64,000 nt of DNA from Alistipes sp. (GTDB taxonomy: Bacteria > Bacteroidota > Bacteroidia > Bacteroidales > Rikenellaceae), in the NCBI GenBank assembly GCA_045124955.1, contig JBGVMU010000003.1, positions 85,247 through 149,246 on the forward strand, read 5' to 3'. Below the pieces are notes generated by a model that saw only the letters and a list, made by a program, of their open reading frames with translations, had not been told where the DNA came from and ran no database searches. Both the position numbers and the translations under genes were made by a program. Within the stretch, counting starts at the first letter, position 1. Each line of letters starts with the position of its first letter. Of this stretch, positions 15,724-64,000 are shown in pieces.

Positions 15724-15842
15724 CCCCCCCCCCCGAAAAATTTTCGGGGAGGGCATTTCTCCTATTGTGTTATTTTCTAATTCAAAGTAAACGATTTTTT
15801 GCGAGATTTCCAAATTTTTTTTTGTTTTTTTTCGGGGGGGGG
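15724..15842. repeat. Inverted homopolymer repeats C11-GAAAAA ... TTTTTC-G9 flanking the promoter
   Basis: 15726-15740 CCCCCCCCCGAAAAA is the exact reverse complement of 15828-15842 TTTTTCGGGGGGGGG; 87 bp lie between them. Confidence 0.85.
15783..15814 (-). promoter_or_regulatory. Candidate housekeeping-type promoter for the 15.6-kb surface-protein operon
   Basis: On the minus strand TTTG-N20-TTACTTTG, one mismatch from the Bacteroidota -33 TTTG / -7 TAnnTTTG consensus. Confidence 0.5.
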
Positions 15843-15954
15843 ATTATTGGGGGTTACTGGGGTTACTGGGGGCGCTCACTCTGTTCGCTTGTCGGGGTGC
15901 GCTGAAAGTTTCTCCCATTAGTCCCATTGGTCTTATTAGTCCCATTGGTCCCAT
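15843..15954 (-). repeat. Scaffold repeat copy (AAACTTTCAGCGC anchor + cargo) followed by a 9-mer CCCATTRGT array
   Basis: The reverse complement of 15843-15911 starts AAACTTTCAGCGCACCCC, like 55226 and 63711; 9-mer array at 15914-15954. Confidence 0.7.
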
Positions 15955-23194: not shown

Positions 23195-23323
23195 AATTGA
23201 CAATTGACAATTGATAATTGACAATTATAGGTATTTTTATTTTTAACTACTCACTACTCACTACTCACTGCTCACTGCTCACTACTCACTGCTCACTGCT
23301 CACTGCTCACTGCTCACTACTCA
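23195..23323. repeat. Two heptamer arrays between mreC and mreD: (AATTGAC)x5 and (CTRCTCA)x11
   Basis: Arrays at 23195-23229 and 23247-23323; the second runs in phase into the mreC stop codon. Confidence 0.95.
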
Positions 23324-24148
23324 CTAATGGTAGGTTTTTTCTTCGAGTGCTTGTGCCTCGCCGGCACCTGTGTTGCGCACCAATACCACATTGTAGAGTC
23401 GGTTCATATCTGCCGCAAGGCGCACCTTGCAGTTGTAGGATGTACCATTCTCGGCAAGCTCTATCTCTTCGATATTTCCGATTATCGCCTCCTTAGGGAA
23501 GTAGTGCGAGAAACCTGCGGCACGCACCAAGTTGTCTTTCTGCACCTTGGCATACTTGGACAACTCCACAAAGTCTATAATCTGCGTATCGCCACCACGC
23601 CACGCCACCGAGCCGTGACTACCATCCTCTGCCAACACTCCGCCAAGACGGAAATCGACATTCAAGAGCGTCTTTGCCACGGCGAAGTTCTCCGAGCAAT
23701 CGACCACCACACCTACGGCATAACCCTCGGGGGTCATCACTGCCATATCGGCAAATACTCCGTCTTGAAAGCCCTTGTCGAGGGTGATAAAGTTGCGACG
23801 ACGATTTGTGGTTGAGGATATCACACGGGCCGAGAGGTACTCATACCTCTGCAATACCCCCTCGACTGCCAATTTCTCCTCGGGTTGCATAGCTTCGAGG
23901 GTGCGAATGCGGTTTTCGAGCGTAGCGATATGCTCGGTCAAACGGGTATTCTCCTTGCGGAGCGCAAAGTAGTTCGATATTCCAGCAAAGGTTGATTGCA
24001 CCGCACCCACCACCGTATTTGACCACACAAGCAGGCGAGCCTGTGTATATGGCGTCGAATAGGCGTAACAGCGAATGGCGATAATCTCCAAAATGATAAA
24101 GACTATCGCCACTGCGGTTTTGCGTATGAAGTATATCAACTTCTGCAT
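23324..24148 (-). CDS. mreC: Rod shape-determining protein MreC
   Basis: Coiled coil LRKENTRL, ARVISST...FITLDKG, FPKEAIIG. Confidence 0.95.
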   Translation of the reverse strand: MQKLIYFIRKTAVAIVFIILEIIAIRCYAYSTPYTQARLLVWSNTVVGAVQSTFAGISNYFALRKENTRLTEHIATLENRIRTLEAMQPEEKLAVEGVLQRYEYLSARVISSTTNRRRNFITLDKGFQDGVFADMAVMTPEGYAVGVVVDCSENFAVAKTLLNVDFRLGGVLAEDGSHGSVAWRGGDTQIIDFVELSKYAKVQKDNLVRAAGFSHYFPKEAIIGNIEEIELAENGTSYNCKVRLAADMNRLYNVVLVRNTGAGEAQALEEKTYH

Positions 24149-26811: not shown

Positions 26812-26971
26812 TGGAGTGGAGAGTTGAAAATGGAGAGTTGAGAGTTTTTCTCGACTCTCTTTTTTTAGGGCTATTAGCCATTGGCCATTAGCCATTAGCT
26901 TTTTAGGGGTGATAGGGATAATAGGGGTAATAGGGTTTTTCTAAACTCACTAAATTCCCTAAATTCTCTAA
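26812..26971. repeat. Heptamer arrays (GGAGAGT; CCATTAG) plus a composite 9-mer element
   Basis: 26812-26845, 26871-26899 and 26894-26971; the last is the near reverse complement of 33741-33826. Confidence 0.85.
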
Positions 26972-27001
26972 TCTCCATAAATTCCCTCTCTTCCTGACTT
27001 C

Positions 27002-27124
27002 AAAATCGTAAATGGTTGAGGGAATTTTGTGCAAGGCTAGGCGTTGAGTGCGGAGCATACTTGGCGTATGTGAGCAACTCAACGACCGACGACTTGTGCA
27101 AAATTCACCAACCAGAACGATTTT
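27002..27124. repeat. ~123-bp palindromic element, copy C (opposite orientation)
   Basis: CGGAGCATAC-TTGGC-GTATGTGAG core; termini AAAATCGT...ACGATTTT; closely similar to copy E at 62407. Confidence 0.88.
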
Positions 27125-27129
27125 CCTAC

Positions 27130-27167
27130 AAAAAAAGATAGACACTCGATTGAGTGTCTATCTTTTT
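27130..27167 (-). terminator. Rho-independent terminator after rpmE2
   Basis: AAAAAGATAGACACTC-GATT-GAGTGTCTATCTTTTT hairpin with A/T tails on both sides. Confidence 0.85.
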
Positions 27168-27584: not shown

Positions 27585-27770
27585 CATAGGAGATGCACCT
27601 GCGATGCTTGATAAGAGGCGGAGCAGAGCTCCTTTATGGGAGATACCGACAAGTCGGCTTGATAGGAATTGTGTCCTGGCTTATCTTGTCAAGTAGTCGC
27701 AAGACTACGCCTCCTATCAAGCAATTCTTTGAATTGCACCTCCTATCAAGGGCGCAGCACGACTCTTATA
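27585..27770. repeat. Array of CNYCTCCT-ATCAAG units each followed by a different mini-hairpin; two halves in inverted orientation
   Basis: Three units on each strand; related units at 63730-63804. Confidence 0.85.
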
Positions 27771-27826
27771 TGCTAAACAAATAGCGGCTTGGATTTCCCA
27801 AGCCGCTGTTGTTTAGTTACTCTTTT

Positions 27827-33610: not shown

Positions 33611-33713
33611 TTTTTACATACCCCCCTCCGCTACGCTCGTCCCCCTAACTTAGGGGGACAATACCTTATCTATTCCTCCCCTAACTTAGGGGAGGTGGCA
33701 AAGCCAGAGGGGG
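33611..33713. repeat. REP-like doublet, copy 1
   Basis: Hairpins GTCCCCCTAACTTAGGGGGAC (33639-33659) and CCTCCCCTAACTTAGGGGAGG (33675-33695); inverted copy at 40399-40505. Confidence 0.88.
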
Positions 33714-33740
33714 ATTTAGTTTTTGGGGCTTTTAGTGAGC

Positions 33741-33836
33741 TTAGAGGAATTAGGGAGTTTAGCGAGTTTAGAAAAACCCTATCACCCCTATTCCCCCTAT
33801 TATCCCTATCACCCCTAAAAAGCTAACGGCTAAAAG
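33741..33836. repeat. Composite 9-mer element (inverted copy of 26894-26971 with one extra unit)
   Basis: Direct alignment by eye. Confidence 0.85.
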
Positions 33837-33851
33837 CCAATAAAAAGGTAT

Positions 33852-37882: not shown

Positions 37883-38034
37883 CAATTGATAGTTGATAAT
37901 TGAGAATTATAGGTAAAAGCGATGCAAAACATCGCTTTTATTTTTTTATTTGTATATCAGATGTAAATTTTAATATAAAATACCACAAATTGTCAATTGT
38001 CAATTGTCAATTATCAATTAGATTTCTAACTTTG
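37877..38034. repeat. Inverted pair of AATTGAC/AATTGTC heptamer arrays enclosing the rnr terminator and ending at the mqnC promoter
   Basis: 37877-37911 (contains the rnr TGA), terminator AAAAGCGATG-CAAAA-CATCGCTTTT at 37915-37947, array at 37988-38020, TAACTTTG at 38027-38034. Confidence 0.88.
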
Positions 38035-38038
38035 CAAT

Positions 38039-39130
38039 ATGGAACTGCACTATATTTACGATAAGGCATTTGCCGGGGAGAGGATTTCGGCAGAGGAGGC
38101 TCTGCGCTTATGGCGTGAGGCTCCGTTGCACGAGTTGGCGGAGCAGGCCGACCGCTTGCGAGCCGAGAAGGTTGCCGACCCGACAGTTGTGACTTGGCAA
38201 ATCGACCGCAACATCAACACCACGAATGTCTGCGTGTCGGGGTGTCGCTTCTGCAACTTCCACTGCAAACCTCACCAAGTCGAGAAGCACTTTATAACCC
38301 CAATCGAGGAGTATATCCGCAAGACCGAGGAGATGTTCGCCCTCGGTGGCGACCAACTTCTCTTGCAGGGCGGTATGCACCCGAAACTCGGCATAGAGTA
38401 CTACGAGGAGCTGTTCTGCGCCCTCAAAGAGCACTTCCCAACGCTTCGCCTGAACGCCCTCGGAGCACCCGAGGTGGCACATATCGCAAAGATTAGCAAC
38501 ATATCTACGCAAGAGGTCTTGGAGCGACTCCGCAATGCCGGTTTATCGTCATTGCCAGGTGCCGGAGCCGAGATTTTGGTGGAGCGAGTGCGCAAGATTA
38601 TCTCACCCGCAAAGCCGAGTGCCGAGGAGTGGCTGCGAGTGATGCACGAGGCGCACGAGATGAATATCCCGACCACCGCAACGATGATGTATGGTCATAT
38701 CGAAACAATAGAGGAGCGTATCGAACACCTTGTTCGTCTGCGTGACTTGCAGGCGGAGTGTCCCGAAGGCAACTACGGCTTTACCGCCTTTATTCCGTGG
38801 ATATTCCGCTCGGAGGGTACGCAACTCGAACAGATGGGCTACTCAACCCACTTCTCGCCAACGGAGTATCTGCGCCTGATTGCGGTGGCACGACTTGTGC
38901 TGAACAATATCCGCAATATTCAGGCGTCGTGGCTTACCGTAGGCAAGCAGACGGCACAGATAGCACTCCACGGCGGAGCGAACGATATGGGCTCGATTAT
39001 GATTGAGGAGAATGTGGTGTCGTCGGCAGGCGCACACAACCGCTTCGACCGAGAGGGCATACAGCAAGCCATTTGTGAGGCGGGCTTTACGCCACGACTG
39101 AGAAATCAACTTTATGAGTACAGAGAATAA
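38039..39130 (+). CDS. mqnC: Cyclic dehypoxanthine futalosine synthase (radical SAM)
   Basis: IDRNINTTNVCVSGCRFCNF (CX3CX2C), LLQGG, SLPGAGAEIL, TATMMYGH, GANDMGSIMIEENVV. Confidence 0.88.
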   Translation: MELHYIYDKAFAGERISAEEALRLWREAPLHELAEQADRLRAEKVADPTVVTWQIDRNINTTNVCVSGCRFCNFHCKPHQVEKHFITPIEEYIRKTEEMFALGGDQLLLQGGMHPKLGIEYYEELFCALKEHFPTLRLNALGAPEVAHIAKISNISTQEVLERLRNAGLSSLPGAGAEILVERVRKIISPAKPSAEEWLRVMHEAHEMNIPTTATMMYGHIETIEERIEHLVRLRDLQAECPEGNYGFTAFIPWIFRSEGTQLEQMGYSTHFSPTEYLRLIAVARLVLNNIRNIQASWLTVGKQTAQIALHGGANDMGSIMIEENVVSSAGAHNRFDREGIQQAICEAGFTPRLRNQLYEYRE

Positions 39131-40350: not shown

Positions 40351-40537
40351 AATTATCGGAATTATATAGTTTAGTGTTGTCAAAAACATAAAGGAATACC
40401 CCTCTGGCTTTCAGCCACCTCCCCTAACTTAGGGGAGGAATATAAAATAAAGTATTGTCCCCCTAAATTAGGGGGACGAGCGTAGCGGAGGGGGTATGTA
40501 AAAAACTACAACACTAAACTGTATAATTCCGAAAATT
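40351..40537. mobile_element. 187-bp MITE-like element: 30-bp inverted ends enclosing REP-like doublet copy 2
   Basis: 40351-40380 and 40508-40537 are reverse complements with 2 mismatches; the doublet lies at 40399-40505; no transposase present. Confidence 0.55.
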
Positions 40538-43352: not shown

Positions 43353-44861
43353 ATGCGTAAAATTTTTGCTTTGGCAGTTAGTGCCATATTGCTTGTTTCG
43401 ACAACCGCCTCGGCAGAGCCGAAGATAGACGAAAGACGAGAGACGAAAGACGAGAGACAAGAGACGAAAGACGAAAGAAAAAGTACAACCGAAGCAGCCG
43501 ACACAAAGAAGCAGATTGTGAAGAAGGGTTGGAACTTTGCTCCATTCCCATCTATCGGCTACAATAGCGACACAGGTTTTCAGATTGGTGCTTTGTGCGA
43601 GATCTTCGACTATGGCGACGGCTCGACCTATCCGGGCTACCGCCACAAGTTCAATGTCGATTTGTCGTGGACAACAAAAAATCAGGTTAAGTTACACTTC
43701 TTCTACGACTCGAAATACCTTATCCCTAAGGTGCGTCTTACGGCGGCTGTGACCTATCTGAACTCGCAGATGTATCCGTTTATGGGCTTCAATGGCAGCG
43801 CTTCGCCCTACTACGACTTCCTCGCAAGTGGCAAGAAGCAGGACTATGGCGTTGCGATGTATAATGTAAAGCGCAATATGATGCGTGTTATGGCGGACTT
43901 CCAGGGTAATATCACCTCGCCAAAGTTCCGCTGGGCAGCAGGTATTTCGTATTGGTGGTACGATGTGCAGGATGTATCGTTGAAGAAGTATAAGTTCGGC
44001 GAGACCGCAGCAAACTACCTCGAATCGCAGGATATCCACTCGCAGTCGCTCTGGAAGTTGTACCAGAAGGCGGGTCTTATCCACGCAAACGAGGCAGACG
44101 GTGGTCACCACATCGAGTTGAAGGCGGGTTTGGTCTACGATAGCCGTGAGCACGAGGCTGACCCTACACGAGGTATCTGGGCAGAGGTTTATGCCTACGG
44201 CTCGCCAGATATCCTCAATGGTCGTGGCAAGGATGGTTACCACTACCTCAAATTGGCTGCTCACTTCCGCCACTATGTGCCTATTTGGAAGGATAAGATT
44301 GTATTTGCCTACCACCTCGCATATCAGGGCTTGTTGGCTGGTCGTGCGCCATACTACACCTTGCAGAATATCAATACCCTCTACCTCCGCCAGATTATCT
44401 CTGACGGTTTGGGAAGTATCAACACAGTGCGTGGTGTGCCATACAACAGCGTGATTGGCGATGGTTATGCGTGGGCAAACTTCGAGATGCGATTTAAGCT
44501 CGTGTCGTTCCGCTTTATCAAGCAGAACTTCTACCTCGCAACCAACCCATTCTTCGATATGGGTGCGTGCATTCAGCCTTATCGCCTCGACGAGATGCGC
44601 TCGGTGCTTACAAATAATGAGTTATCGCAAGCAGAGAAAGACCTCATCTACACAGGTCAGAAGGAGAAGTTGCATATGAGTGCGGGTGTTGGTTTGAAGT
44701 TGGCTATGAACCGCAACTTTATCCTCTCGGCAGAGGTTGCAGTACCACTCAACACCAAGATCTACACCTCTACCGATGTAAGCAAGGGTTTCAACGGAGA
44801 GATAAAGATGAAGAACTCCTACAAGCCGGGTGTGAATATTGGTTTGAATTATATATTCTAA
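43353..44861 (+). CDS. Omp85/BamA-TamA-like outer-membrane beta-barrel without obvious POTRA domains
   Basis: Signal peptide ASA|E; barrel begins at GWNFAPFP; YDSREHEADPTRG, TVRGVP loop motif, C-terminal NIGLNYIF. Confidence 0.75.
   Translation: MRKIFALAVSAILLVSTTASAEPKIDERRETKDERQETKDERKSTTEAADTKKQIVKKGWNFAPFPSIGYNSDTGFQIGALCEIFDYGDGSTYPGYRHKFNVDLSWTTKNQVKLHFFYDSKYLIPKVRLTAAVTYLNSQMYPFMGFNGSASPYYDFLASGKKQDYGVAMYNVKRNMMRVMADFQGNITSPKFRWAAGISYWWYDVQDVSLKKYKFGETAANYLESQDIHSQSLWKLYQKAGLIHANEADGGHHIELKAGLVYDSREHEADPTRGIWAEVYAYGSPDILNGRGKDGYHYLKLAAHFRHYVPIWKDKIVFAYHLAYQGLLAGRAPYYTLQNINTLYLRQIISDGLGSINTVRGVPYNSVIGDGYAWANFEMRFKLVSFRFIKQNFYLATNPFFDMGACIQPYRLDEMRSVLTNNELSQAEKDLIYTGQKEKLHMSAGVGLKLAMNRNFILSAEVAVPLNTKIYTSTDVSKGFNGEIKMKNSYKPGVNIGLNYIF
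43428..43476 (+). repeat. (GACGARA)x7 heptamer array inside the Omp85-like CDS
   Basis: gacgaaa-gacgaga-gacgaaa-gacgaga-gacaaga-gacgaaa-gacgaaa encodes DERRETKDERQETKDER. Confidence 0.92.
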
Positions 44862-46375: not shown

Positions 46376-46498
46376 AAAATCGTTCTGATTGGCTCTTTTT
46401 GCACCTTACTTGCAGTGAAAATGCTCACATACGCCCAAGTATGCTCCGCTTCTCACTACTGCGTAACGCACAAAAATAGCCTAATCATCGACGATTTT
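46376..46498. repeat. ~123-bp palindromic element, copy D (between TolC and MATE)
   Basis: AAAATCGTTCTGATTGG...CTCACATAC-GCCCAA-GTATGCTCCG...ACGATTTT. Confidence 0.85.
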
Positions 46499-46518
46499 GG
46501 ATATTCTATAGATAAAAA

Positions 46519-53604: not shown

Positions 53605-54711
53605 TTATTGTTGATTTTCGGTCGTTTCCTCGGCTACGACTTCGGAGTTACTCTGCACTTCGGGTGTTGCTTCGGCAGTTGCTTCTGGGGCGATAAGGCT
53701 TCGGCAGAGGTCGCCGGCAAAGCCTGCTCCATTATAGACAAAACCCGTATAGACCTGTACGAGGGTTGCGCCTGCATCCATCATTCGCTTGACATCCTCG
53801 CCCGTCATCAAACCGCCTACTCCGATGATTGGGTAGGTGCCGTTGCAACGCTCATATACTCGGCGCACAACCTCTATTGCTCGCTCGGTCAGAGGCTCGC
53901 CACTCACCGCTCCGACGCCCCTTTTTCGCAGCTCCTCCTTCGAGGTTTTAAGCCCCTCGGGGTGGGTTGTGGCGTTGGTAGCGATAATTCCGTCGAGCGG
54001 AGTATCGACCATAATATCGGTCATCAAATCAATCTCCTCGTTGGTCAAATCGGGCGATATTTTCAGGAGTATCGGGCGATATTGAGTTTGTCCTCGGCGG
54101 AAGTCGAAGAGTGGTTCGAGAATCTTCATTATGCTCTCTCGGGTGCGAGGTACATACTGCTTGTGGGTGGTGTTGTAGCTCACATTCACGGCAAAGTAGT
54201 CGAGGTACTGATAGAGGTTGCGGAATACTCGCAGATAGTCCATTGCCGCCTCCTCGGGAGGTGTGACGGTGTTTTTGCCGATGTTGCAACCGAGAATTAT
54301 GCCTTCGTGTCCCTTGCGAACATTCTCTATTACCGCTTCGAAGCCCTTCGAAGCCAAACCTATGCGGTTGATAATGGCTTTATCCTCGGGGAGTTCGAAG
54401 ATTCTCGGCTTAGGGTTGCCCTGCTGTGGGCGAGGGGTGACCGTTCCAATCTCCACAAAGCCGAAGCCGAGTGCCGAGAGTGGGCGGAAAATCTCGCCAT
54501 TGCGGTCGTAGCCGGCGGCGATGCCTATCGGATTGCGGAAGTGAAGACCGAAGACTTCACGCTCCAAACGCTCATCCTCAACGGCATAAATCTTGTGCAT
54601 AAACCACTTTGCCAACGGCATTTTGTCGGCAATACGGAGCATCCAAACCGAGAGCGAATGGGCTCGTTCGGCTCCGAAAAAGCGGGATATGAAGTGTAAA
54701 ATCTTACGCAT
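53605..54711 (-). CDS. pyrD: Quinone-type dihydroorotate dehydrogenase-like protein with a non-canonical active-site loop
   Basis: Start reassigned to MRKILHF (54711); NPIGIAAG, GFGFVEIGTVTP, NIGKN, LKISPD, IIGVGG present; catalytic loop reads NVSYNT. Confidence 0.75.
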   Translation of the reverse strand: MRKILHFISRFFGAERAHSLSVWMLRIADKMPLAKWFMHKIYAVEDERLEREVFGLHFRNPIGIAAGYDRNGEIFRPLSALGFGFVEIGTVTPRPQQGNPKPRIFELPEDKAIINRIGLASKGFEAVIENVRKGHEGIILGCNIGKNTVTPPEEAAMDYLRVFRNLYQYLDYFAVNVSYNTTHKQYVPRTRESIMKILEPLFDFRRGQTQYRPILLKISPDLTNEEIDLMTDIMVDTPLDGIIATNATTHPEGLKTSKEELRKRGVGAVSGEPLTERAIEVVRRVYERCNGTYPIIGVGGLMTGEDVKRMMDAGATLVQVYTGFVYNGAGFAGDLCRSLIAPEATAEATPEVQSNSEVVAEETTENQQ

Positions 54712-54718
54712 AACGGCG

Positions 54719-54765
54719 CAAAGGTATGCAAATAAACGGAAAACTGAAAGCGGAAAACGGAAAAC
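54719..54765 (-). promoter_or_regulatory. pyrD-like promoter with (RCGGAAA)x4 array directly upstream
   Basis: TACCTTTG on the minus strand at 54719-54726, 7 nt from the ATG; array at 54736-54765. Confidence 0.7.
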
Positions 54766-54780
54766 TTTTGTTTTTCGTTT

Positions 54781-54947
54781 GGAGCGAAAAGCGGAACCGC
54801 TGCGATTAAGTCGAGCGCAGAGAGGGCTTGCACACTCTGCCGAGACGGAGCAGTGAAGCCCGAAGGGCAACCGACGCAGCGGAGCGAGAGCAGAGGGTGC
54901 TTGCACACTATGCCGAGCCGCAAGGAGGAAAAGCCTGCGAAGCAGGA
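54781..54947. repeat. Element with a 19-bp direct repeat GCTTGCACACTMTGCCGAG and GAA-loop mini-hairpins
   Basis: Repeats at 54826-54844 and 54899-54917; hairpins GCCC-GAA-GGGC and CCTGC-GAA-GCAGG. Confidence 0.7.
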
Positions 54948-54970
54948 TTAAAACGGAAAACTTTCAATTT

Positions 54971-55270
54971 AGTGAGTAGAGAGTAGAGAGTAGTGAGTAG
55001 TGAGAACGGAAAACGGAAAGCGGAAAGCGGAAAACCCTCAGCGCCCCCTTAATAGCCCTTAATAGCCTTTAACAGCCTTTAATTCGTTGCGCCGTGATAA
55101 GGGTAGGAGTCTGCACAACCCCAAAAACCCTCAGCGCCCCCTTAATAGCCCTTAATAGCCCTTAATAGCCTTTAACAGCCCTTAATTCGTTGCGCCGTGA
55201 TAAGGGTAGGAGTCCGCACAACCCCAAAAGCCTTTCAGCGCACCCTATTACCCCTATAATTCGTTGCGCC
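54971..55270 (+). repeat. Fused heptamer array (9 units) followed by three tandem scaffold copies with 10-mer/9-mer cargo
   Basis: 54971-55033; scaffolds at 55031-55122 (3 x TAAYAGCCYT), 55123-55225 (4 units) and 55226-55270 (one 9-mer). Confidence 0.9.
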
Positions 55271-55297
55271 TTTCCCACCATCAGAGTTCCGAAAACC

Positions 55298-56293
55298 CTA
55301 AAAATACTCCTCTCGGTAGTGGTAGTTGTTGCGCAGTTGCTCGAATTGTTCGGGGTTGTTGCGCAGGGCTTTGCTCTCGGTGGCGAGGTCGCAATAGTTG
55401 ACGATTGTAGCACACATCTCCTCCCACGAAATCGGTTTTGGCGTAACCGCTTCGACCTCGCTTGGTCGCCACTCTTTGAGTGGAAGGTCGAAGTGACGAG
55501 CCAACGCCTGCACTGCCAAAGCGGTGGCATTTGCCTTGCCCTGTGCCGAGTAGCCCGCAATATGGGGCGTTGCAACGAGCGACTTTGCGAGGTAGTCGCT
55601 GTCGATATTAGGCTCGTTTTCCCACACATCGGTGATGTAGGTGAGGTCGTTGCGCCTTGTCGCCTCGGTCGCCACGCACTCCCCTCGTGAGGCGTTTATA
55701 AGGGTTGCTCCCGAGTGCAAGAGCGATATATTTTCGGTATCTATCAGGTGCTCGGTTGTCGGGTCGAGCGGAGTGTGGATAGTTACTATGTCCGACTCTC
55801 GTAAAACCTCTTCGAGCGATACGAAATCGAGCTGCTCACGCTCCTGACGGGGAGGGTCCGAGCAGATGGTGCGAAACCCCCACGCTTCGGCATACTCCTT
55901 CACCAATTTGCCCACATTTCCTACGCCTACGATGCCCAAGGTGCGCTCTTGCGGAGCGAAATTATCTCGCTTGGCAACCATCGACAAAGCGGCTGCCACC
56001 CACTGCAAAACACCTCTTGCATTGCAACCTGCCGAGGTCGAAACGACGATGTTGTGCGCTCGACAATAGTCGAGGTCGATATGGTCGAAGCCGATTGTGG
56101 CGGTGGCGATAAACTGCACCTTCGAGCCTTCGAGCAGTGAGCCATCGCAACGGGTGCGGGTGCGCACAATCAGCGCATCGGCATCTCGTACCAACTCGCT
56201 CGTAAAGGCGTAGCCGTCGATATACTCCACCTCGGCAAAGGGCTCCAATACCCCCTTCAAAAATGGAATTGCCCGATCGATTAAAACTCTCAT
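55298..56293 (-). CDS. pdxB: Erythronate-4-phosphate dehydrogenase
   Basis: LIVRTRTRC, ATATIGFDHID, GCNA, GIVGVGNVG, IHTPL, INASRG, DVWENEP, TPHIAGYSAQGK. Confidence 0.93.
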   Translation of the reverse strand: MRVLIDRAIPFLKGVLEPFAEVEYIDGYAFTSELVRDADALIVRTRTRCDGSLLEGSKVQFIATATIGFDHIDLDYCRAHNIVVSTSAGCNARGVLQWVAAALSMVAKRDNFAPQERTLGIVGVGNVGKLVKEYAEAWGFRTICSDPPRQEREQLDFVSLEEVLRESDIVTIHTPLDPTTEHLIDTENISLLHSGATLINASRGECVATEATRRNDLTYITDVWENEPNIDSDYLAKSLVATPHIAGYSAQGKANATALAVQALARHFDLPLKEWRPSEVEAVTPKPISWEEMCATIVNYCDLATESKALRNNPEQFEQLRNNYHYREEYF

Positions 56294-62402: not shown

Positions 62403-62406
62403 AATA

Positions 62407-62529
62407 AAAATTATTCTGATTTGTAAATTTTGCACCTTGTGTCGGTCGTTGAGTTGCTCACATAGGCTTACTATGCTGCGCACTCATCGCCTAACAACGC
62501 ACAAAATTTCCTAAATCACCTCTAATTTT
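62407..62529. repeat. ~123-bp palindromic element, copy E (between murB and tilS)
   Basis: Core CTCACATAG-GCTTA-CTATGCTGCG, a compensatory C-G/G-C swap relative to the other copies. Confidence 0.88.
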
Positions 62530-62558
62530 TTAGTTTGTATCCAAGATACTTAATACAT

Positions 62559-62592
62559 CAATTGTCAATTGTCAATTATCAATTGTCAATTT
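62559..62592. repeat. (AATTGTC) heptamer array after the murB stop
   Basis: Four to five units ending 4 nt before the stop at 62597. Confidence 0.9.
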
Positions 62593-62596
62593 GTTT

Positions 62597-63607
62597 TTAT
62601 AAAACATTCACTTCTGGTGAAATCTCTATTCCGAACTTCTCTTTTACGGTTGCGACAACCTTGTGCGCAAAGGCGATAACCTCGCCACCCGTAGCACCTC
62701 CGAGATTTACCAAAACCAATGCCTGACGCTCGTGTACGCCGACATTACCTTCGTGGTAGCCCTTCAATCCCGACTTGTCGATAAGCCAACCTGCCGCAAG
62801 CTTCACCTTGCCCTCCTCGGCAGCAGGGTAGTGCGGCATTTCGGGGTACTCTGCCAGCAATCGCTCGGCAACCTCACGCTCTACGATGGGGTTTTTGAAG
62901 AAGCTTCCCGCATTGCCCAAAACGGCAGTGTCAGGCAACTTCGAGCGACGGATAGAGCAGATTGCATCACGAATATTTGCAAGAGTTGCGCCACCTCGTG
63001 CCTCGATTTCACGAACGACATCGCCATAGCCAAGACGAGGGTTTGCCACCTTCGACAACTCGATTTCGATGGCGGTGATGATGACACGACCCTTCAACGA
63101 GTGCTTGAATACGCTCTCTCGGTAGCCGAAACCGCAATGCTCGGCTGCGAGGGTTATGAAGTTGTTGCCCTCGACAAAGTACATATCGACGCTCTTGATT
63201 GCATCCTTCGCCTCTACGCCGTATGCACCAATATTCTGCACAGGTGCAGCACCCGCCTTGCCGGGGATAAGCGAGAGGTTTTCGATGCCCCAAAGGTTGC
63301 GCTCTACGCTCCACGCCACCAAGTCATCCCACTCGACACCTGCGCCCACCTTTACACGAACTGCCGTGTCGCTCTCGCCAATCACGGTTATGCTCTTGTC
63401 GCAAGGGGTGATAAGCAGTGCGTCGACATCCTGCGTGAAGAGGATGTTGTTGCCACCGCTCAACACATACCAACTCTCGGGTTGGTACTTCGCAAAGATT
63501 TCGGGCAACTCCTCGGCGTGGTCGAACTCCACAAGATGTTTTGCCGTTTGTCGAACATGGAACGAATTGCGCTCCGAGATGTCGATATTTTGGTAGTAGC
63601 GTATCAT
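62597..63607 (-). CDS. murB: UDP-N-acetylmuramate dehydrogenase
   Basis: LSGGNNILF, ENLSLIPG, APVQNIGAYG, FGYRESVFK, GNAGSFFKNP, QALVLVN, EVN. Confidence 0.97.
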   Translation of the reverse strand: MIRYYQNIDISERNSFHVRQTAKHLVEFDHAEELPEIFAKYQPESWYVLSGGNNILFTQDVDALLITPCDKSITVIGESDTAVRVKVGAGVEWDDLVAWSVERNLWGIENLSLIPGKAGAAPVQNIGAYGVEAKDAIKSVDMYFVEGNNFITLAAEHCGFGYRESVFKHSLKGRVIITAIEIELSKVANPRLGYGDVVREIEARGGATLANIRDAICSIRRSKLPDTAVLGNAGSFFKNPIVEREVAERLLAEYPEMPHYPAAEEGKVKLAAGWLIDKSGLKGYHEGNVGVHERQALVLVNLGGATGGEVIAFAHKVVATVKEKFGIEISPEVNVL

Positions 63608-63635: not shown

Positions 63636-63895
63636 CAAAGATAATAAAATGAGCGGAAAACGGAAAACGGAAAGCGGAAAACTTTTAATTTAGAGAGTAG
63701 TGAGTAGTTAAAAACTTTCAGCGCTCCCTATCAAGCAGTTGCAAACTGCGCCTCTTATCAAGGGCGTAGCCCGCCTCCTATCAAGCACCGTAGGTGCGCC
63801 TCCTATAATCGTTGCGCCGAGATAAGGGTAGGAGTTCGCAAGCCGCAAAAAAAAGGAGAGTCGATCTCTCAACTCTCCACTCTAAACTCTCAACT
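63636..63895. repeat. murB promoter followed by a composite repeat homologous to 54736-55270
   Basis: TATCTTTG on the minus strand at 63636-63643; (RCGGAAA)x4 at 63653-63682; AGWGAGT units; scaffold at 63710-63840 with three ATCAAG-hairpin units; (CTCTCMA) array at 63866-63895. Confidence 0.88.
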
Positions 63896-63901
63896 GCTCT
63901 A

Positions 63902-64000
63902 TTACTGTGCAGGTGCCTCTGGCGCAACCTCTGCCTGTGGGCAAGCCTGTGGGCAAGCCTTTGGGCACTCAGCCTTCTTCTCGCACTCTACGCACTCGGT
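63902..64000 (-). CDS. C-terminal 32 aa of a gene entering from the right edge (Cys-rich tail)
   Basis: TECVECEKKAECPKACPQACPQAEVAPEAPAQ*; codon usage matches the host genes. Confidence 0.65.
   Translation of the reverse strand, partial: TECVECEKKAECPKACPQACPQAEVAPEAPAQ

Follow-up and report, generated by a model that had tools for sequence, protein, structure and literature searches.

The window analysed here, a stretch of 64 kb from the Alistipes sp. contig JBGVMU010000003.1 with a gene list based on open reading frames (ORFs), is ordinary chromosome of a Bacteroidota bacterium (49.8% G+C), and its intergenic spacers are mosaics of several families of short repeat modules. One of these families is a two-ended element, in the following referred to as the scaffold element, in which a constant left end and a constant right end enclose a variable repeat cargo. 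The cluster at 55 kb, in the spacer between pyrD and a pdxB-like gene, is probably best described as three tandem copies of this element: a small (~70-135 nt), non-coding, dispersed modular repeat, a non-autonomous mosaic specific to a clade of gut Alistipes/Rikenellaceae. A preliminary description of this DNA had proposed a conserved scaffold with interchangeable repeat cargo, and this scaffold is real; no ORF lies within the elements, which are non-autonomous and dispersed across loci and species.

In the window the right anchor TTGCGCCGWGATAAGGGTAGGAGT occurs at 55087, 55190 and 63812, always on the + strand (0 expected from shuffles), and the left anchor AAAACYYTCAGCGCNCCCT occurs exactly at 55031, 55124 and 63711, and with two mismatches at 55228 and, reversed, at 15894-15912 (0.1 expected by chance). 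When the 64 kb are scanned with a profile made from copies of other genomes, four right ends are found and no more, three of type 1 and one of type 2. The parts of the copies are as follows.

55031..55049, + strand: left end of element A, AAAACCCTCAGCGCCCCCT, 0 mismatches, with its core GCGC at 55041-55044.
55050..55086, + strand: cargo of element A, three 10-mers of the TAATAGCCCT type and the partial unit TAATTCG (from Tandem Repeats Finder, TRF, and the sequence).
55087..55123, + strand: right end of element A, type 1 (G-rich core), TTGCGCCGTGATAAGGGTAGGAGTCTGCACAACCCCA (nhmmer E 1.8e-11).
55124..55227, + strand: element B, a tandem duplicate of A (103 nt; TRF period 103, 1.9 copies, 93% matches), with left end 55124-55142, cargo of four 10-mers and a partial unit 55143-55189, and type 1 right end 55190-55227.
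55228..55297, + strand: element C, which abuts the stop codon of the convergent pdxB-like gene; left end 55228-55246.
55247-55263, + strand: cargo of element C, one 9-mer ATTACCCCT and a partial unit.
55264-55297, + strand: right end of element C, type 2 (C-rich core), GCGCC-TTTCCCACCATCAGAG-TTCCGAAAACC (type-2 model E 1.7e-07).
63711..63845, + strand: element D, with left end 63711-63729 and type 1 right end 63809-63845.
63730-63808, + strand: cargo of element D, three 23-25-nt units of ATCAAG plus mini-hairpin and a partial unit.
15843..15912, - strand: reversed partial copy, a left end and CAGTAACCC-type cargo with a GCGAACAGAGTGAGCGC insert, without a right end.

The recurrence of anchors around three 10-mers, four 10-mers, one 9-mer and ATCAAG-hairpin units, as first described, is thus confirmed against 0-0.1 expected matches. 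The right anchor of the 9-mer copy had been called truncated; it is instead a full-length second anchor type (55264-55297), found also in L032, L056, L013 and L010 (loci fetched from elsewhere are cited by number). The three hairpins of element D have the stems CAGTT/AACTG, GGGC/GCCC and GCACC/GGTGC, each with a G-N-A triloop. The reversed left-anchor copy reported near 15843 is present with its CAGTAACCC-type cargo, but the right anchor is absent; its GCGAACAGAGTGAGCGC insert recurs in L022. Homopolymers (C11 and G9, at 15725-15755 and 15833-15843), which are candidate slippage-prone tracts, flank this copy upstream of a small ORF on the - strand.

Outside the window, where about 45 further copies lie in Alistipes/Rikenellaceae genomes, an exact match to 21 nt of the right end identified 30 loci in species-representative genomes, all of them Alistipes or Rikenellaceae metagenome-assembled genomes from sheep, yak and other guts, and a slightly degenerate search of metagenomes added 13 further real copies besides 9 high-G+C chance matches. 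All real copies have one layout in common, (A)AACTTTCAGCGCNCC, cargo, partial unit, TTGCGCC-[G/T]TGA-(9-nt core)-GAGTYCGCAAAAC and an A-rich tail, with a left end of 14 nt, a right end of ~40 nt and a 9-nt core that is either G-rich or C-rich. The about 50 copies hold n = 1-5 cargo units between these ends, and the units belong to at least six families, either 9-10-mers or a unit followed by a mini-hairpin with a G-N-A loop (23-27 nt): TTAATAGCCC / TTACTAGCCG (at some loci an inverted array stands in front, so that a long foldback results), CTAACGCCC / CTAACAACC, TATTACCCC, CAGTAACCC (with or without mini-hairpins), CTATCAAG plus hairpin, and CTAAACTCC. Read on the strand co-oriented with the genes, the cargo consists of 34% C and 7.6% G, and the two GCGC cores are spaced 45-50 nt apart in 15 of the 23 simple copies.

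A multi-copy gene for a ~44-aa peptide (MRKTYIVPEVMAYEVAAERGYQ...), together with its terminator, is attached to elements with CAGTAACCC+hairpin cargo in L029, L059, L018, L025, L026, L050 and L053, ~100-250 nt past the right end. A phage origin was discarded, since the single match to a viral contig (L059) and L029 are one and the same region of the chromosome.

Insertion, loss and replacement affect whole elements, which behave as discrete intergenic units. Element D and L051, for example, are 87% identical exactly over AACTTTCAGCGC...GGAGTYCGCAA, with three differing hairpins in the same order, and their flanks are unrelated. The clearest pair comes from the spacer between sufB and sufC, inside the tight sufBCDS operon: in L066 it measures 39 nt and reads AGCCAAATT(AARAATT)x4-AT|ATG, while L017 possesses heptamers of the L066 type plus a 101-nt insert, CTTTCAGCGC...AAAAGAAAA (...GCAAAAAAAAGAAAA), right before the ATG, with the insert boundaries between AATTA and T-ATG. 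Other close relatives have a different 125-nt repeat element there, or no repeats. Similarly, the pdxB-pyrD spacer measures 571 nt in the window; L032 has ~470 nt there, some of the modules being different, and L060/61 have 83 nt without any scaffold; the flanking genes are 96-99% identical, and homology ends exactly at the stop codon and the -7 box. Upstream of murB, element D is kept with small changes and a different number of heptamers in L071 (MurB 99% identical), L073 combines the cargo of the window with the right-end core GTGACCACCCTCGGAG instead of GAGATAAGGGTAGGAG, and an anchor-less 9-mer array replaces the element in L075-78. Copies are therefore polymorphic for presence at all three sites (pdxB-pyrD, murB upstream, sufB-sufC), and none was seen within a gene.

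The internal composition is variable as well: orthologous copies differ in their number of units, in cargo family and in right-end core. Element A has three units versus four in B, and element C one versus three in its L032 ortholog; L016/20/33 versus L021/24/27, L010 versus L034 and L012 versus L035 are orthologous sites with different cargo, and the scaffold is absent before the RNase R gene of the window, the ortholog of a scaffold-bearing site. L011 and L017 have their insertion in common, with identical ends and cargo that is only 67% identical next to sufC genes that are 94% identical. The search for the anchors in relatives has thus brought up further loci whose cargo varies between orthologous copies, and the comparison of filled with empty orthologous sites has brought up different cargo or none. 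The earlier notion of an element that expands at a fixed site is right in so far as unit number varies, but whole elements come, go and are exchanged as units.

Placement of the copies avoids promoters and terminators. At ~15 independent loci the element has the orientation of both neighbour genes, and 15-64 nt separate its end from the ATG downstream. Genes of the window have a TAnnTTTG box 12-60 nt ahead of the ATG; this box is found in none of 15 co-oriented spacers versus 8 of 15 comparable window spacers (Fisher p = 0.002; ORF-based gene list), and a terminator is likewise found in none of these 15 co-oriented spacers. Because they contain neither promoter box nor terminator, we conclude that co-oriented copies lie in co-transcribed spacers. 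Reversed copies, i.e. those of the window and a set on the 3' side of the 44-aa peptide gene, follow a terminator or stop codon and precede the promoter of the spacer itself.

Several processes may have acted together on such an element. Slipped-strand mispairing would change the number of units, and cargo families and the right-end core could be swapped when copies recombine or undergo gene conversion, for which the constant ends would supply the homology. As 5-6 of 9 positions agree between the G-rich core and the reverse-complemented C-rich core, the core may also be an inverted segment, although chimeric variants (TAAGCTTCG, CCACCTTCG) fit mosaic exchange as well. Spread would take place in trans, by a candidate enzyme or by recombination through common arrays. 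Selection on transcription would then decide which copies survive: co-oriented ones in co-transcribed spacers just before start codons, and reversed ones only between transcription units, as in the window, so that selection against polar effects could account for the orientation pattern.

A number of observations weigh against this description. The L066/L017 pair, the one pair available, has no target-site duplication but only a possible single A/T. The only terminal inverted repeat is TCAGCGC / GCGCNNTGA, which is imperfect and 7-10 nt long, and the outer ends (AAAAC... and ...GCAAAAC) repeat in direct rather than inverted orientation. Among the ~47 proteins of the window scanned against Pfam there is no transposase, Y1 transposases included, and mobility in trans is something that we infer. 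Moreover, the exactness of the right end stems partly from the selection of loci, because these were found by an exact 21-nt match and the second copies that chance to lie inside the fetched loci are mostly diverged variants. The co-oriented fraction, about two-thirds of the independent copies, could mean function rather than tolerated insertion. Finally, the 165-nt spacer of L016, L020 and L033 is 98-100% identical between flanking genes that are 77-90% identical, which implies either selection on the whole spacer or recent copying.

One alternative, which we regard as possible, though unlikely, is that co-transcribed spacers contain a cis-acting module, at the level of RNA or DNA, that has been domesticated. 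Its C-rich, G-poor periodic array would be where an RNA-binding factor lands, for instance the termination factor Rho (at a rut-like site) or a protein of the cold-shock/S1 type, its purine-rich right end would influence how the message of the next gene is processed or translated, and the cargo families would represent alternative specificity modules. The C-rich, G-poor cargo and the preferred distance between GCGC cores are consistent with this, as are the right end's short distance to the ATG at ~15 independent loci, the spacers devoid of promoter box and terminator, ends that are kept while cargo diverges (L011 versus L017), and the L016/20/33 spacer, which is more conserved than synonymous sites. 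However, near-identical genomes (L060/61, L066, L075-78) lack the element in the spacer concerned and show nothing that would compensate for it, the window copies are all reversed relative to the genes, and a G-rich right-end core is swapped for a C-rich one at the same locus. To our knowledge, no binding factor for the element has been described. Neither structure nor covariation was found: the folds of elements A, B, C, D and L017 do not surpass those of shuffled sequences (z from -0.16 to +0.76 for simple copies, + strand), the best fold on the - strand has z = -2.8 in one copy, and only copies with inverted arrays fold well. Potential pairing between left and right ends (GCGC, TCA/TGA) is without compensating changes among the variants, and the window has 0 matches to Rfam 15 at gathering score, with only chance-level hits (E > 5) in 54600-55400.

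More speculatively, an active lineage-specific system could install and rewrite short-unit arrays between fixed GCGC-bounded ends, the spacers serving as cassette sites in the manner of an integron for regulatory DNA. Such a system, with an HUH nuclease, a site-specific recombinase or a reverse transcriptase that copies short templates as candidate enzyme, would account for spacers that are wholly different in 96-99% identical genomes, yet identical where genes are 77-90% identical; we nevertheless consider it improbable.

Quite improbable, too, is a regulatory reading in which an alternative sigma factor uses the right end as a non-canonical promoter, activators bind the 9-10-nt arrays just before it, whose spacing is about one helical turn, and exchange of cargo rewires regulation. 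The 5-54 nt that lie between GCAAAAC of the right end and the ATG do match the 4-51 nt between -7 box and ATG in the window, the canonical TAnnTTTG box is absent from these spacers, and cargo and right end meet at a fixed junction. Against this, the element occurs within the tight sufBCDS operon, three copies in tandem are directed into the 3' end of pdxB, and the same genes do without it in close relatives. There is no match to the Bacteroidota -33/-7 consensus, to a sigma-70 scan or to a conserved sigma-54 GG/GC pair, and the centre of the right end is its most conserved part, whereas conservation is lowest where a -10-like box would be. Individual promoter types were accordingly rejected: the sigma-70 scan returned no sites and TAnnTTTG is in no anchor; the GG-N10-GC spacing of sigma-54 suits some copies, but the GC is not conserved; and for an extracytoplasmic function (ECF)-like promoter the most conserved bases would fall in the spacer. 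Other candidate signals likewise failed. AGGAG lies at least 15 nt from the ATG, too far for a Shine-Dalgarno sequence, C3 runs (as for a G-quadruplex or i-motif) are not in all cargo families, the in-frame stops TGA-TAA-GGG-TAG serve one frame only, and GC skew, examined for replication-strand bias, merely mirrors the gene strand.

We find it very improbable that the copies are a system like repetitive extragenic palindromic (REP) sequences and REPINs, moved by a REP-associated tyrosine transposase (RAYT; HUH Y1) acting on hairpins in single-stranded DNA. Hairpin cargo with 4-6-bp stems of varying sequence and G-N-A triloops would suit such a system, inverted arrays give some copies a long foldback (L021, z = -4.5), and copies are dispersed as well as clustered, like bacterial interspersed mosaic elements (BIMEs). 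Most copies, however, including A, B and C, have no palindrome (z ~0), the ends are not hairpins, the stems lack an adjacent GTAG or CGTC tag and are headed by CAGTAA or TATCAAG, and no Y1 transposase is encoded among the ~47 window genes scanned. Independent slippage at each site, with anchors that are chance similarities or ordinary conserved spacer, has next to no probability: unit number does vary locally, but the anchors have 0-0.1 expected matches, identical multi-unit elements lie at unrelated loci and in different genomes, and sufB-sufC provides a clean filled/empty pair.

The features that neighbour the scaffold copies are listed below.

53605..54711, - strand: pyrD (dihydroorotate dehydrogenase), downstream of the 55-kb cluster along transcription.
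54719-54726: -7 promoter box of pyrD, CAAAGGTA (reads TACCTTTG on the - strand).
54734..54765, + strand: (AAACGGA) x4.6 array, directly upstream (- strand) of the pyrD -7 box.
54766..54950, + strand: GC-rich element of ~185 nt, a separate repeat family bounded by the direct repeats AACGGAAAACTTT(T/C).
54951..54969, + strand: one CGGAAAA unit and the linker ACTTTCAATT, a conserved end-piece of CGGAAAA arrays.
54970..55004, + strand: heptamer array (TAGWGAG) x5 (TRF), a separate mosaic module outside the scaffold element.
55005..55032, + strand: heptamer array (RCGGAAA) x4, abutting the TAGWGAG array without spacer and running into the left end of A.
55298..56293, - strand: pdxB-like 2-hydroxyacid dehydrogenase, its stop codon touching element C.
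62597..63607, - strand: murB, downstream of element D along transcription.
63636-63643, - strand: murB promoter box TATCTTTG.
63654..63710, + strand: (CGGAAAA) x4, linker CTTTTAATTT and (TAGWGAG) x2.5, between the murB promoter box and element D.
63855..63878, - strand: intrinsic terminator of a small Cys/Pro-rich ORF (ends 63902), its T-run abutting the right end of D.
27590..27775, strand not assigned: ATCAAG+hairpin units in inverted and direct orientation, without scaffold anchors.

The flanking genes at both loci are on the - strand, so that the four full copies of the window are reversed relative to transcription. Along that strand the order at 55 kb is pdxB-like stop codon, C, B, A, heptamers, GC-rich element, heptamers, -7 box TACCTTTG and pyrD, and at 63.8 kb it is terminator of the small ORF, element D, heptamers, -7 box TATCTTTG and murB. 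The small ORF (63902-64000, - strand; also in L071 and L075-78) is lipoprotein-like and situated upstream of murB, and the length of its C-terminal AP-rich repeat varies among close relatives. Within 54709-54726 and 38027-38041 the -7 box lies close to the start codon, with only 7 nt between it and the ATG for pyrD and 4 nt for the gene at 38039, which suggests that the transcripts of these two genes may be leaderless or nearly so.

Heptamer arrays, linkers and the GC-rich element thus share the mosaic spacers with the scaffold element but are modules distinct from it. The 7-, 9- and 10-mer and hairpin arrays had at first been united into a single element; this union does not hold, as heptamer and 9-mer arrays stand without anchors at 23.2, 26.9, 33.7-33.8, 37.9 and 62.6 kb, ATCAAG+hairpin units do so at 27.6-27.8 kb, and element D is replaced by an anchor-less 9-mer array in relatives. 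The TAGWGAG type, for instance, occurs without scaffold at 23246-23326 (reverse complement). Likewise, the continuous phase of the adjoining heptamers is true, with 35 nt of TAGWGAG abutting 28 nt of RCGGAAA at 55004/55005, but says only that there is no spacer between them. The linker ACTTTYAATTT, taken to join the same two array types at both loci, is indeed present at 54959-54969 and 63681-63691, but is an end-piece of CGGAAAA arrays: the same junction is found in L007, L030, L032, L036 and at 63676 of the window, and varied modules come next. The GC-rich element contains two copies of GCAGAGRGNGCTTGCACACTMTGCCGAG and, on the - strand, a terminator-like hairpin (54934-54946); it is missing from the same spot in L032 (96-98% identical) and was found in L007 and L016.

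Arrays of 7-mers and 9-mers crowd the intergenic spacers all through the window, among housekeeping genes: SusC/D, mreBCD-pbp2-rodA, pgi, serS, RNase R, rimM, an AcrAB-TolC-like pump, cinA, pyrD, the pdxB-like gene, two FKBP genes, holA, tilS and murB. The window and loci together (317 kb) contain 126 period-7 arrays, in which the heptamers AATTGAC, CGGAAAA, AGTGAGT, GCTAATG, AGACGAG and AAAATGC recur. An array of (AGACGAA) x7.4 (43427-43478), a type that is intergenic elsewhere, lies within the N-terminal part of an Omp85-like ORF (43353-44861).

Additional composite repeats were observed in the same spacers. A dispersed element of ~125 nt with a palindromic core, GCGGAGCATACTT..GTATGTGAGC, is present at 27000-27130, 46376-46500 and 62407-62520 of the window, in L064 (1019-1151) and in L013; tilS and a MatE gene of the window have it immediately before their start codons, it fills the sufB-sufC spacer in L064/65, and it has no match in Rfam. 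The murB-tilS spacer of the window, ~190 nt (62403-62596), consists of AATTGAC x5 and this 125-nt element, while that of L071 (2512-2547) is 36 nt long and consists of (CGTTAGAGG) x2, with tilS DNA 99% identical. Between RNase R and the next gene, where the L012 spacer is 1 nt, the window has a 156-nt cassette (37883-38038) composed of (AATTGAY) x4.6, a terminator hairpin, inverted (AATTGTC) x4.6 and the promoter box TAACTTTG; its first heptamer provides the RNase R stop codon, and it looks like an inserted insulator with inverted repeats made of arrays. A composite module of ATTAGCC 7-mers, T5, AGGGGTRAT 9-mers, T5 and CTAAAYTCC 9-mers is found in opposite orientations at 26869-26990 and 33731-33845, and an inverted repeat pair at 33620-33705 / 40390-40500 has CCCCTAACTTAGGGGAGG / CCCCCTAACTTAGGGGGAC hairpins and CCCCTCCGC ends, the hairpin repeat also coming after scaffold copies in L042 and L043.

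The anchor sequence was found in no paper, and our literature search found no report of such repeats in Alistipes. Nearest in architecture are the BOX elements of Streptococcus pneumoniae, boxA-(boxB)n-boxC, small non-coding dispersed intergenic repeats that are often co-transcribed and have no transposase of their own. Like these, the scaffold element has two differing constant end modules around variable tandem internal modules, a likeness of kind and not of membership. It differs in its units (9-10 or 23-27 nt, versus 45 nt for the internal module of BOX), in having at least six unrelated-looking unit families between the same ends, in its shorter ends (14 and ~40 nt), in the lack of a stable stem-loop transcript and in belonging to a different phylum.

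Within Bacteroidales, the BrickBuilt miniature inverted-repeat transposable element of P. gingivalis has a single 23-nt unit family, a leader and tail that reach ~300 nt and small terminal inverted repeats, and is known from one species (PMC4596501). Both BrickBuilt and the scaffold element have spacer-less tandem units with distinct flanking ends, are always intergenic, include copies with partial or missing flanks and range from one to many units (PMC4596501), but the scaffold element has tiny ends, multiple cargo families and a distribution over many species-level genomes, without a single 23-nt unit family or a long leader and tail. With the BIMEs and REP sequences of Enterobacteria and Pseudomonas it shares mosaic spacers, a small module vocabulary, conserved linkers, tandem clusters and positions between operon genes or after stop codons. 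REPs, however, are imperfect palindromes with a GTAG or CGTC tag (PMC3733652), whereas most copies here are non-palindromic and without such a tag, and the window holds no RAYT. Finally, TAACTGA heptamer repeats are known from Beggiatoaceae, cyanobacteria and a few Bacteroidetes (PMC4679880). The arrays that flank the scaffold element (the scaffold itself excluded) agree with these and with the short tandemly repeated repetitive (STRR) sequences of cyanobacteria in being tandem heptamers of limited vocabulary that are intergenic and often just before start codons (PMC4679880). Those reports describe bare heptamer arrays of other sequences, and not a two-ended scaffold with 9-10-mer or hairpin cargo. 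New here are the tiny ends, the several cargo families per scaffold, the spread over many species and the extreme turnover of spacers.

If this description is right, the intergenic spacers in a clade of abundant herbivore-gut bacteria consist of a small vocabulary of short-array modules and turn over far faster than the genes between them. Short-read assemblies break at these modules; indeed, every Logan contig for pdxB and murB ends in them. The scaffold element would offer a compact system for studying the spread of modular repeats like BOX, BIME and BrickBuilt and the way in which their parts are exchanged. Since copies lie inside operons or beside promoters, their gain and loss may alter gene expression between strains.

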